Below, in pieces: positions 1-2,017 of a stretch of 64,000 nucleotides of DNA. The DNA is taken from the NCBI GenBank assembly GCA_004524535.1, contig SDNY01000003.1, positions 1 through 64,000 on the forward strand. The letters are read 5' to 3'. The notes beneath the pieces are model-generated. The model ran no database searches. It was given only the letters and a program-made list of their open reading frames with translations, and was not told the origin of the DNA. Every line of letters starts with the position of its first letter. Within the stretch, counting starts at the first letter, position 1. A program made the translations under genes and the position numbers. This stretch comes from Promethearchaeota archaeon (GTDB taxonomy: Archaea; Asgardarchaeota; Lokiarchaeia; Sigyniarchaeales; SOKP01).

Positions 1-53
1 GGCATTTACAAGATAATCAGGATTCCTTAGAAGAGATATTTCTCGAAGTTTAA
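1..53 (+). CDS. 3' end of a gene running in from the window edge (…HLQDNQDSLEEIFLEV*), possibly an ABC ATPase C-terminus
   Basis: Open frame from nt 3 to TAA at 51-53; SLEEIFL resembles the C-terminal motif of DrrA-type ABC ATPases. Confidence 0.35.
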   Translation, partial: HLQDNQDSLEEIFLEV

Positions 54-219
54 AAAAAATTAGATATATCCAACTGTTAAGGTGAGAATAATGTCGGATT
101 AAAAAAAATAAAAAATTAAAGATAAAAAAATACTTCATTAGATACTGAAAAAAGAAAAAAAAAGTTTATAACTTTTTACACAAATGCCTTTTTTGGTATT
201 GCCAAAATCCCGATTTCCC

Positions 220-1801
220 TTATGGTAGAGCCAGCCTTCCAGTTATCAGGGAGACTTTCCCCGCAATGTCCAGGATGCATAATAAAATTCGGATCTACCA
301 ATTTTTTGAATGCCCTTAAGTACTTCCAATACATACCTGCTTGGTAATACGCTTGAATGTGGATAAACGGGTCTGGACGATAATTTAACCAACCCCGCTT
401 CAACGAGTATTCCGTAGTGACCGCATTAAGCTCTTGCACCTTTTCAAAGTCCTTATCTTTCGTACTTTTTCGTTCTAGCAGTTTTTTTCTGCTAAAATAT
501 CGAAACAGATGATAGGCATGCAAATAGCTTGTCTGCATCTCTCTATTGACGCAATCCACATGACTGGAGGAATTTCGTGCTAAAGAAGGGGATTCCCTTC
601 TCTTAGTATCTCGTTCCTCCATCTCACGATTGTACATCTCTGCGAATTCTGCACACTCATTCCAAGGAGTATACCACGTAATAAATAAGAAACCTGCGTC
701 CCAAAAACTATAAGGGATTGCAATCTTATTTGGCTTTTTCATTCTACTGGCTATTTGTTTAGGATGCAATTCCCAAGGTTTCATAGCAGCCCCATCTTTA
801 GCACGATTCTTTTTGAAATCTTCTGCCATCGAATTTATCCGTTTGATAACATAATCCAATTCCTCTTGAGTTTGAGCCCAGCATTCCCAATTCATCCACC
901 ATTCTGGAATTCCAATTTCTTTAAAGAATTCATATTCATGTGGAATTTTATCCTTTGGCCAGCGTGTCATAACAAGGGGATAATTACCTCCCTGAACCAT
1001 TACGGTGTTATGGCTGATTCCGAATTCTTGGTGACCCACTTCAAGAGTTAGGTTCTGCATATCATAAGGATTTGACATTCCCCACGCTACAACCGTTTTA
1101 TGTTTAGGGTGAGGATAAATTTTTACCGCAGCTTTAGTAACAACACCTAAAGCTCCTTGGCTTCCCATTAAAAATGACCACATGTCTGGACCAATACCAA
1201 ATTTGTAGAAAGGTTTTGCAAAAGGAAGCGCCCAAGAACCTGTTCTTACAACATCTCCGTTAGGAAATACGACTTCTGCACACATAAAGTTATCTCCTTG
1301 AGGCCCTACACTTGATGTATAAAGAGAGAAACCTCTATCAATAGCATCCCCCATTACAGTTGCTGCAGGAGGAGCCCCATCAGCTATAGGAGGAGCCCAA
1401 TCAGGATGATATTTCTCCATATAAGCCCATAGTCCACCGTTAGTGACACCAGGCTCAACGATTGCGTATCGATTCGCCTCATCAATTTCTATTATTCTAT
1501 CCATTCTACCTAAATCTAGTAAAACGCCTGCTGGTTTAATTGTTGGACACGCAAACCCACCAGAGAGCCCTCCAGAAACAGGACTTACTGCGATCTTTTC
1601 TGCTGAACAATAGATTAATATTTTGCGTATTTCTTCCGTGTATTTTGGTCGTACTACAATATCTGGGATTTGACTTTCTAGACCCATTACCGATTTAGCC
1701 AGATAAGAAGCAGTGATTGCTTTATTGTTGCTGGCATAATTCTTTCCCACTATCCCAATCATTGCTTCAAAATCTTTCTCATCGGGTGCCTTATACGACA
1801 T
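220..1801 (-). CDS. FAD-binding oxidoreductase (VAO/PCMH, GlcD-like), predicted spliced from 4 exons: 1801-608, 573-499, 466-268, 236-220 (494 aa)
   Basis: VAO-type motifs (DIVVRP, GVLLDLGRMDRIIEID, VEPGVT, GSQGALGVVTK). Removing three BHB inserts gives …EERD/IPPVMWIASIERCRQAICMPIICFD/STKDKDFEK… and the family-typical end FKKLVDPNFIMHPGRLALP*. The ORF track's 176-1801 call is the unspliced read-through. Confidence 0.88.
237..267 (-). other. Predicted 31-nt BHB intron (intron 3, phase 1) in FAD oxidoreductase mRNA
   Basis: Central helix CUGG/CUGG (C-G, U-G, G-U, G-C); bulges AC^A and AA^G; internal stem UUG-CGGGGA/UCCCUG(A)UAA; excision gives CCU GGA C|GG CUG GCU CUA CCA UAA = PGRLALP*. Confidence 0.8.
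467..498 (-). other. Predicted 32-nt BHB intron (intron 2, phase 0) in FAD oxidoreductase mRNA
   Basis: Central helix UUCG/CGAA perfect; bulges AU^A and AA^A; 9-bp internal stem UUUUAGCAG/CUGCUAGAA with A7 loop; carries an in-frame UAG relative to exon 2. Confidence 0.87.
574..607 (-). other. Predicted 34-nt BHB intron (intron 1, phase 0) in FAD oxidoreductase mRNA
   Basis: Exon helix UGGAGGAA/UUCCUCCA; central helix CGAG/CACG (3 of 4 pairs); bulges AU^A and AA^A; internal hairpin CUAA(G)AGAAGGG/CCCUUCUUUAG. Confidence 0.85.
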
Positions 1802-2017
1802 AATTATTCATACCTTTATTTTATTTGTTTTTTATGAATTATATTAAAATTTTTATTATTTTGGAAAATTAAATACTGAATTTTAATTTTTCTTAAAAGA
1901 ATTTCATAAAAAGAAAGACTTTTTTTTATAAAATTATTGTTCAATTCTTAAAAATAATTCACGTAAAATACAAAAATATTATTCAAAATTAGATAAATTT
2001 ATTGCTAATTTTAATTT

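Follow-up and report, generated by a model that had tools for sequence, protein, structure and literature searches.

A probable BHB mini-intron on an imported 3' gene segment in a Lokiarchaeial FAD oxidoreductase pre-mRNA

The 34 nucleotides at 607..574, on the minus strand of the window (the whole stretch analysed, the first 64,000 nucleotides of contig SDNY01000003.1 from a Promethearchaeota archaeon), likely constitute a bulge-helix-bulge (BHB) mini-intron in the pre-mRNA of a Lokiarchaeial GlcD-like FAD oxidoreductase, spliced together with two further introns and brought in on an imported 3' segment. The gene most likely has to be spliced; its cleavage and ligation in the cell we infer from the sequence. 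In the proposed mechanism, the transcript would fold into an 8-bp exon helix, two 3-nt bulges, a four-position central helix that an A·A mismatch weakens, and, within the intron, an inner hairpin. A two-subunit EndA would cut after the second base of each bulge, RtcB would join the exons, and introns 2 (498..467) and 3 (267..237) would be removed likewise, leaving the conserved 494-aa enzyme to be encoded by the triply spliced message only. The imported 3' segment carrying intron 1 would have replaced the native end of the gene.

The host gene encodes a GlcD-like FAD-binding oxidoreductase with a FAD_binding_4 domain (E 2.9e-21). Its reading frame has 334 database relatives (E <= 0.001), headed by proteins of 494-495 aa; where a name is given, as it is for a few, it reads Promethearchaeati or Lokiarchaeota FAD-binding oxidoreductase. 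When compared with 11 of these relatives, the read-through protein differs from all of them along a 47-residue stretch in its C-terminal part and again downstream of a conserved His-Pro-Gly near its end. Deletion of 574-607 turns the next 25 codons into a segment conserved in all homologs, after which the frame closes again. Excision of intron 2 (32 nt) then leads into the conserved continuation Cys-Phe-Asp-Ser-Thr-Lys, and excision of intron 3 (31 nt) yields the conserved C-terminus with a stop at 222..220. The four joined exons (1801..608, 573..499, 466..268 and 236..220) encode 494 aa that align without a gap to the 494-aa product of the closest ortholog, L070. A whole-genome search with a homolog likewise recovered the gene as three pieces in different frames, covering aa 1-396, 397-430 and 423-491. 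Coordinates of the gene, its introns and the related features are collected in Table 1.

Table 1. Positions of the gene parts, intron elements and related features (window coordinates unless a contig or locus is named).
Feature	Position	Strand	Description
Read-through ORF	176..1801	minus	541 aa
Exon 1	608..1801	minus	aa 1-398; carries PF01565; DNA 92.7% identical to L070
Intron 1 (feature under study)	607..574	minus	34 nt; insertion, BHB fold and frame restoration
Exon 2	499..573	minus	25 codons; frame shifted against exon 1
Intron 2	467..498	minus	32 nt; removal restores exon 1 frame
Exon 3	268..466	minus	
Intron 3	237..267	minus	31 nt; removal gives conserved C-terminus
Exon 4	220..236	minus	true stop codon at 222..220
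BHB 5' exon half	608..621	minus	outer strand, CGAG and bulge bases AU
Outer helix, 5' exon strand	621..614	minus	UGGAGGAA
Central helix, 5' exon strand	613..610	minus	CGAG
Bulge 1	609..607	minus	AUA; AU (609..608) exonic
Inner hairpin, 5' strand	606..595	minus	CUAAGAGAAGGG
Inner hairpin loop	594..591	minus	AAUC
Inner hairpin, 3' strand	590..580	minus	CCCUUCUUUAG
Central helix, 3' strand (intronic)	579..576	minus	CACG
Bulge 2	575..573	minus	AAA; last A (573) exonic
Outer helix, 3' exon strand	572..565	minus	UUCCUCCA
BHB 3' exon half	565..573	minus	bulge base A (573) and outer strand
End of IS-like repeat	1..163		98% identical copy at C137:1-163
Native 3'-end remnant	C73:36237-36443 (L087 1498..1716)	minus	72 codons, from about aa 426, without intron 3
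208-aa ORF just upstream of C73 remnant	L087 1870..2496	minus	copies at C45:3135-3752 and C19:2732-3289
Metagenome contig L148	1..2013		intron-bearing 3' end (introns: aa 380, 424, 490), followed by two opposite-strand ORFs and a remnant 3' end

The unspliced frame is itself open. No stop interrupts it over the 47 codons that span intron 1, exon 2 in its shifted frame and intron 2 (chance about 5% by a rough estimate), nor in the 25 codons past intron 3. Thus, a stop codon does not force splicing of the 541-aa read-through frame. A search of public sequencing runs for RNA returned 19 rows, in which the share of words was at most 0.19; contigs from four runs belong to relatives 90-99% alike, and none of them crosses 574-607. 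One run contig, from such a relative, is without intron 2, which is uninformative for the window organism.

At the RNA level, the 60-nt minus-strand stretch 621..562 has a predicted folding energy of -24.7 kcal/mol (z = -4.71), a value matched by 0 of 200 shuffles; its MFE fold leaves the mismatched central helix unpaired, within a 7x7 internal loop. If both bulges are cut canonically, behind their second base, 607..574 is released and a 7-nt loop remains. Besides the inner hairpin, the excised piece contains base 3 of bulge 1, the central-helix strand CACG and two of the bases of bulge 2. Of 377 junction pairs around the site that we scored for BHB geometry (central, outer and inner helix), the 34-nt excision ranked best, with 3/4 central pairs, an outer helix of 8 and an inner helix of at least 5. 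A preliminary description had proposed a BHB-type intron at this place, and the cuts predicted from structure are exactly those that restore the conserved protein. The perfect 8-bp exon-exon helix that it described was recovered as 8/8 Watson-Crick pairs between 621..614 and 572..565, and so was the A·A mismatch in the CGAG/CACG central helix. The 7-nt loop that it likened to an anticodon arm does have that length, but is not special: any BHB excision leaves such a loop, because the geometry contributes 4 central-helix bases plus 2 + 1 bulge bases.

The hBHBh' motif consists of two 3-nt bulges on opposite strands, a 4-bp central helix and the helices h and h', with a functional product after excision at the bulges and a host that has a relaxed-motif EndA and an RNA ligase. 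Here, the bulges are AUA (609..607) and AAA (575..573), on opposite strands. The central helix CGAG/CACG pairs at three of its four positions and is open in the MFE fold. Helix h has 8 Watson-Crick pairs, and h', the inner hairpin, has 11 bp, made up of 4 bp, a bulged G and 7 bp. The product is the gap-free 494-aa protein, and the genome encodes EndA paralogs and RtcB. Rfam gave 0 matches at E <= 1 in window 1-2000. A group I or group II self-splicing intron was rejected on the lack of an Rfam match and on size, 34 nt being far too short.

The other two introns differ in how strongly they fold. Intron 2 has a fully paired central helix (UUCG/CGAA, 4/4), bulges AU^A and AA^A, an inner helix of 9 bp and an outer helix of 3 bp; its fold has z = -3.74, and the 32-nt excision has the best BHB score at that place. 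Intron 3 has the central helix CUGG/CUGG, with two G-U pairs, and folds weakly (z = 0.11). Its junction was misplaced by the peptide criterion; BHB scoring there gives 4/4 central pairs.

Insertions of this kind recur across the gene family. In an alignment of 161 loci (the window, 80 species-genome loci and 80 metagenome loci), there are 33 mini-insertions of 25-52 nt at about 20 sites between aa 15 and aa 490, and 20 loci besides the window gene carry them. One locus, L123, has six in a single gene copy (aa 42/47 region, 119, 205, 233 and 267). The lengths of 12 of the 33 are divisible by 3, hence there is no bias or constraint toward staying in frame. Intron 1 itself is present in one of the 161 loci, that of the window, and as a singleton it therefore offers no covariation at its site. 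The 79 genomes of relatives agree: where they match this region in a single piece, the match falls about 66 nt short of the query. The lone longer match (G016:C47) is locus L081, whose intron lies at aa 424. The database protein from that locus, P0014, has at the same site 11 additional residues, the translation of an in-frame intron of 33 nt.

Homology-defined junctions, that is, those giving the best protein match, are strongly enriched for BHB geometry. A central helix of 4/4 is found at 16 of the 33, as compared to 2.6% under a null of all other junction pairs tried, and one of at least 3/4 at 24 of the 33, as compared to 17%; exactly 3/4 pairs, as in intron 1, occur in 8 of the 33. The junction with the best BHB score is also the one with the best protein match in 13 of 33 cases, where 0.27 would be expected by chance. 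Nine of the 33 have at most 2/4 central pairs at the homology-defined junction, in at least some cases because the junction was called imprecisely. By our estimate, BHB motifs of such quality occur about 1000 times by chance in 3.7 Mb, and a frame-restoration filter on a genome-wide motif scan would miss multi-intron genes like this one. Exon helices are longest at two sites, that of intron 1 (8 bp) and that of the aa-424 intron in L017 and L081 (9 bp), and at each of them the central helix contains a mismatch; where the central helix is perfect, the exon helix measures only 0-3 bp. This coincidence suggests that a long exon helix compensates for a central mismatch.

It could be supposed that the gaps are crossed in translation, by ribosomal bypassing over the hairpin, as in phage T4 gene 60, or by paired frameshifts, and that no RNA splicing takes place. 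The stable hairpin inside the gap, the open read-through frame and the same five bases on both sides of intron 3 would all fit. However, intron 1 lacks matching take-off and landing codons, the flanking repeat of intron 3 is accounted for by its self-complementary central helix, and bypassing leaves unexplained why two 3-nt bulges spaced four positions apart recur at 24 of the 33 family junctions. We regard this explanation as extremely improbable, and return to splicing at BHB junctions.

The spliced frames also bear the mark of purifying selection. Between aa 398 and 494, DNA identity to L070 is 80%, with 45 synonymous and 3 non-synonymous codon differences. For exon 2, whose reading depends on the removal of intron 1, the numbers are 11 and 0. 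The 99%-complete genome has no second full-length close copy of the gene, and other matches are at most 38% identical.

The same comparison indicates that the gene is a mosaic. Exon 1 is 92.7% identical to L070, whereas exon 2 reaches only 82.7% and exon 3 only 80.6%. Change-point analysis places the switch near window position 656 and no later than 628, which is 20-50 nt upstream of intron 1; across this point, divergence from L070 goes up from 6.7% to 19.9%. GC3 rises from 0.29 upstream to 0.44-0.47 in the tract, where L070 stays at 0.24-0.29. The tract of apparently foreign origin is about 0.45 kb long and contains all three introns. On another contig, C73, lies a remnant of the native 3' end, which shares 94-95% identity with L070 and only 81% with the 3' exons in the window; it is preceded by unrelated sequence, and it runs into the native downstream partner gene (CCG/4Fe-4S), from which the window gene is separated in the assembly. 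It thus appears that the native 3' end of the gene was displaced and replaced by an imported segment that starts about 16 codons upstream of intron 1. A diverged, GC3-shifted tract on one side and a native remnant on the other argue that intron 1 arrived with the imported DNA.

The surroundings of both gene ends were examined as well. The IS-like repeat at the window start lies 57 nt behind the true stop of the gene and probably explains the contig end there; copies occur in many relatives at 74-85% identity, beside a DDE_Tnp_1 (DDE transposase) ORF. Among the contig ends of the genome, the repeat was found only on the window contig, C138, and on C137, at no further one, and the adjacency of C138 and C73 could therefore not be shown. 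The 208-aa ORF next to the C73 remnant has three copies in the genome (100%, 88% and 46% identity) and is found in 1 of 79 relatives. Neither Pfam nor PHROG assigned it to a family, the atlas gave no usable match, and the neighbourhoods of its copies on C45 and C19 hold no gene remnants. A similar layout exists on a single metagenome contig, L148, where the remnant 3' end begins at about aa 419 and has an intron of its own at aa 455. One ORF on that contig, of 199 aa, has treble-clef zinc-finger, DUF723 and DUF559 nuclease-like phage proteins as its language-model and structure look-alikes, with nothing significant in Pfam; as a lead only, it is a candidate zinc-finger nuclease. At the window locus, no endonuclease gene was identified.

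Such a mosaic might instead be an artefact of assembly, in which the first 650 or so contig bases derive from a related organism in the sample and intron 1 belongs to another genome. The sharp change in divergence and GC3 near 656, the position of the gene at a contig end beside a repeat and a bin contamination of 4.4% would fit a chimera. Against this, the C73 remnant starts at about aa 426 behind unrelated sequence and not at a contig end, which means that the native gene really is broken, and L148 has the same layout on one contig. We therefore consider a chimera very unlikely; even then, intron 1 would be real in its true host.

A real recombination could also have failed, leaving a mosaic pseudogene with a swapped 3' end, whose three insertions, as neutral indels or small palindromic pieces of DNA, would never be excised. 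The location of the native 3' end and partner gene on C73 would also suit a gene in decay, and the IS end close behind the stop and the absence of a fold signal in intron 3 point the same way. A pseudogene is nonetheless unlikely, in view of several observations. There are no further defects, and exactly three excisions give a gap-free 494-aa product; the few non-synonymous differences in the 3' part and the lack of another close copy of the gene speak for continued function. All three insertions lie at BHB-compatible junctions, and the same kind of insertion, with strong BHB enrichment, occurs at the 20 other loci of the family. The evidence thus favours a functional gene that is spliced.

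The preliminary description had further suggested that intron 1 entered a pre-existing hairpin, for example by reverse splicing, and that intron-less orthologs be checked for it. That check was run on 80 intron-less loci at the same 23 positions: 2, 3, 4, 5, 6 and 7 of the 8 outer pairs are formed in 1, 6, 22, 25, 23 and 3 loci, respectively. The median is 5/8, and L070 has 7/8 with nearly the same loop and the same loop type. As background, an 8-pair helix around a 7-nt loop in four ortholog sequences averages about 3/8, with at least 7 pairs at 0.5-0.9% of positions. The site of intron 1 is thus predisposed to a hairpin, largely through its codons, since most of the pairing follows from Met-Glu-Glu/Lys ... 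Phe/Ile-Pro-Pro. A weaker proto-helix is therefore borne out, but the full 8/8 helix is absent from all 80 loci, and the intron-bearing allele has the strongest outer helix of all. Reverse splicing into the mRNA of this genome is not supported, given the position of intron 1, 20-50 nt inside the diverged tract.

Sequence relationships among the insertions were sought as an indication of their origin. Elsewhere in the window genome, introns 1-3 have chance-level matches only, of at most 20 nt. In another genome, the aa-455 intron of locus L040 aligns locally to intron 1 with a score of 15, as compared to 6.1 ± 1.3 for shuffles, of which 0 in 2000 reach that score; this is the only sibling pair found for intron 1. 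Five insertions, each at a site of its own and spread over four loci (L123, L143, L163 and L145), have the loop motif GCATTT[CA]G in common, which suggests that they form an intron sequence family. Related intron sequences at different sites argue for mobility and not for local origin. More generally, it is possible, though we hold this tentatively, that Lokiarchaeial protein genes are hosts to mobile tRNA-type mini-introns, with about 20 sites, up to six introns per copy, sequence families at different sites, and horizontal spread by way of replacement gene ends, which push the native end aside and sometimes lie beside a nuclease gene. If this were true, the closest archaeal relatives of eukaryotes would already have multi-intron protein genes that need splicing by tRNA endonuclease and ligase.

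The genome encodes the machinery that splicing would need. There are two EndA-type paralogs of 201 aa each, both with PF01974 and PF02778, and an RtcB (561 bits). Paralog 1 is nearest to the catalytic subunit of Aeropyrum pernix and aligns without gaps through the loop with K44, having a lysine at the same place. Paralog 2 has a Lys aligned to the catalytic His position, which fits a structural subunit. According to the available part of a study by Hirata and co-workers, Asgard EndA is an (alpha-beta)2 enzyme with an L1 loop that is linked to a broad substrate range (PMC5829648), and the accessible text of a preprint counts two EndA paralogs in 44 of 60 Asgard genomes (10.64898/2026.10.13.758758). 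The window genome is predicted to have the same (alpha-beta)2 architecture with an L1 loop. The relaxed-specificity endonuclease that had been postulated from the mismatched central helix, along with a call to determine the EndA type, thus finds a plausible counterpart in a putative two-subunit EndA with the broad-specificity loop lysine, as far as that loop is described in PMC5829648.

Two known forms of mobility resemble what is seen here. TRNA introns of the Thermoproteales transpose between sites, and intron 1 and the aa-455 intron of L040 are similarly related introns at two sites; unlike them, this pair sits in protein-coding genes of two different genomes. In fungal mitochondria, mobile endonuclease cassettes replace the 3' end of a gene and the old end is kept as a remnant. 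The window gene likewise has a seemingly foreign 3' end joined in frame and a displaced native end that starts a few codons from the aa 424 intron site, and L148 provides a parallel layout with its candidate nuclease ORF, again as a lead only. It differs from the cassettes in having no identified endonuclease gene, an unassembled link between C138 and C73, and an IS element in between. The mosaic gene end and the sibling intron are concrete, testable routes of intron spread.

The non-canonical tRNA introns of Asgard archaea share with intron 1 the motif and the predicted (alpha-beta)2 EndA with its L1 (Crenarchaea-specific) loop, and, in the parts of the two sources available, relaxed motifs are tolerated and many gains appear independent (10.64898/2026.10.13.758758, PMC5829648). 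In contrast, the host RNA of the window intron is an mRNA, so that excision must also keep the reading frame. In the archaea most closely related to eukaryotes, the tRNA-splicing machinery would thereby take a broader part in gene expression. Such genes are missed or mistranslated by gene callers: the 541-aa window ORF hides three introns, and P0014 contains a translated one.

The closest precedent in a protein-coding gene is the BHB intron of the cbf5 pre-mRNA, found in the Crenarchaeota (Desulfurococcales and Sulfolobales; Yokobori et al. 2009, PMC2738675, and Watanabe 2002 as cited there). In the accessible portion of that report, the intron is 33-39 bp long in the species named, is cut by the tRNA-splicing endonuclease, and must be removed to obtain functional protein (PMC2738675). 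Membership of intron 1 in the cbf5 intron family was rejected, the host gene being a FAD_binding_4 oxidoreductase with Promethearchaeati or Lokiarchaeota relatives. In the full-text literature, which leaves subscription journals largely outside its scope, no report of BHB introns in protein-coding genes of Asgard archaea turned up; as far as the literature searched reaches, crenarchaeal cbf5 is the only archaeal protein-coding gene in print with a spliced BHB intron. Both cases involve a short BHB-like intron in a protein-coding gene with a lineage-variable presence, to judge from what is available of the cbf5 report. According to the same text, cbf5 splicing was demonstrated by experiment, whereas that of the window gene is deduced from sequence. 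Cbf5 is one gene, in Crenarchaeota; the gene described here is an Asgard FAD oxidoreductase with three introns, two of them frame-shifting, with insertions at about 20 sites across its family and with an intron that probably came on an imported gene segment. On this deduction, an Asgard metabolic gene needs three BHB excisions.
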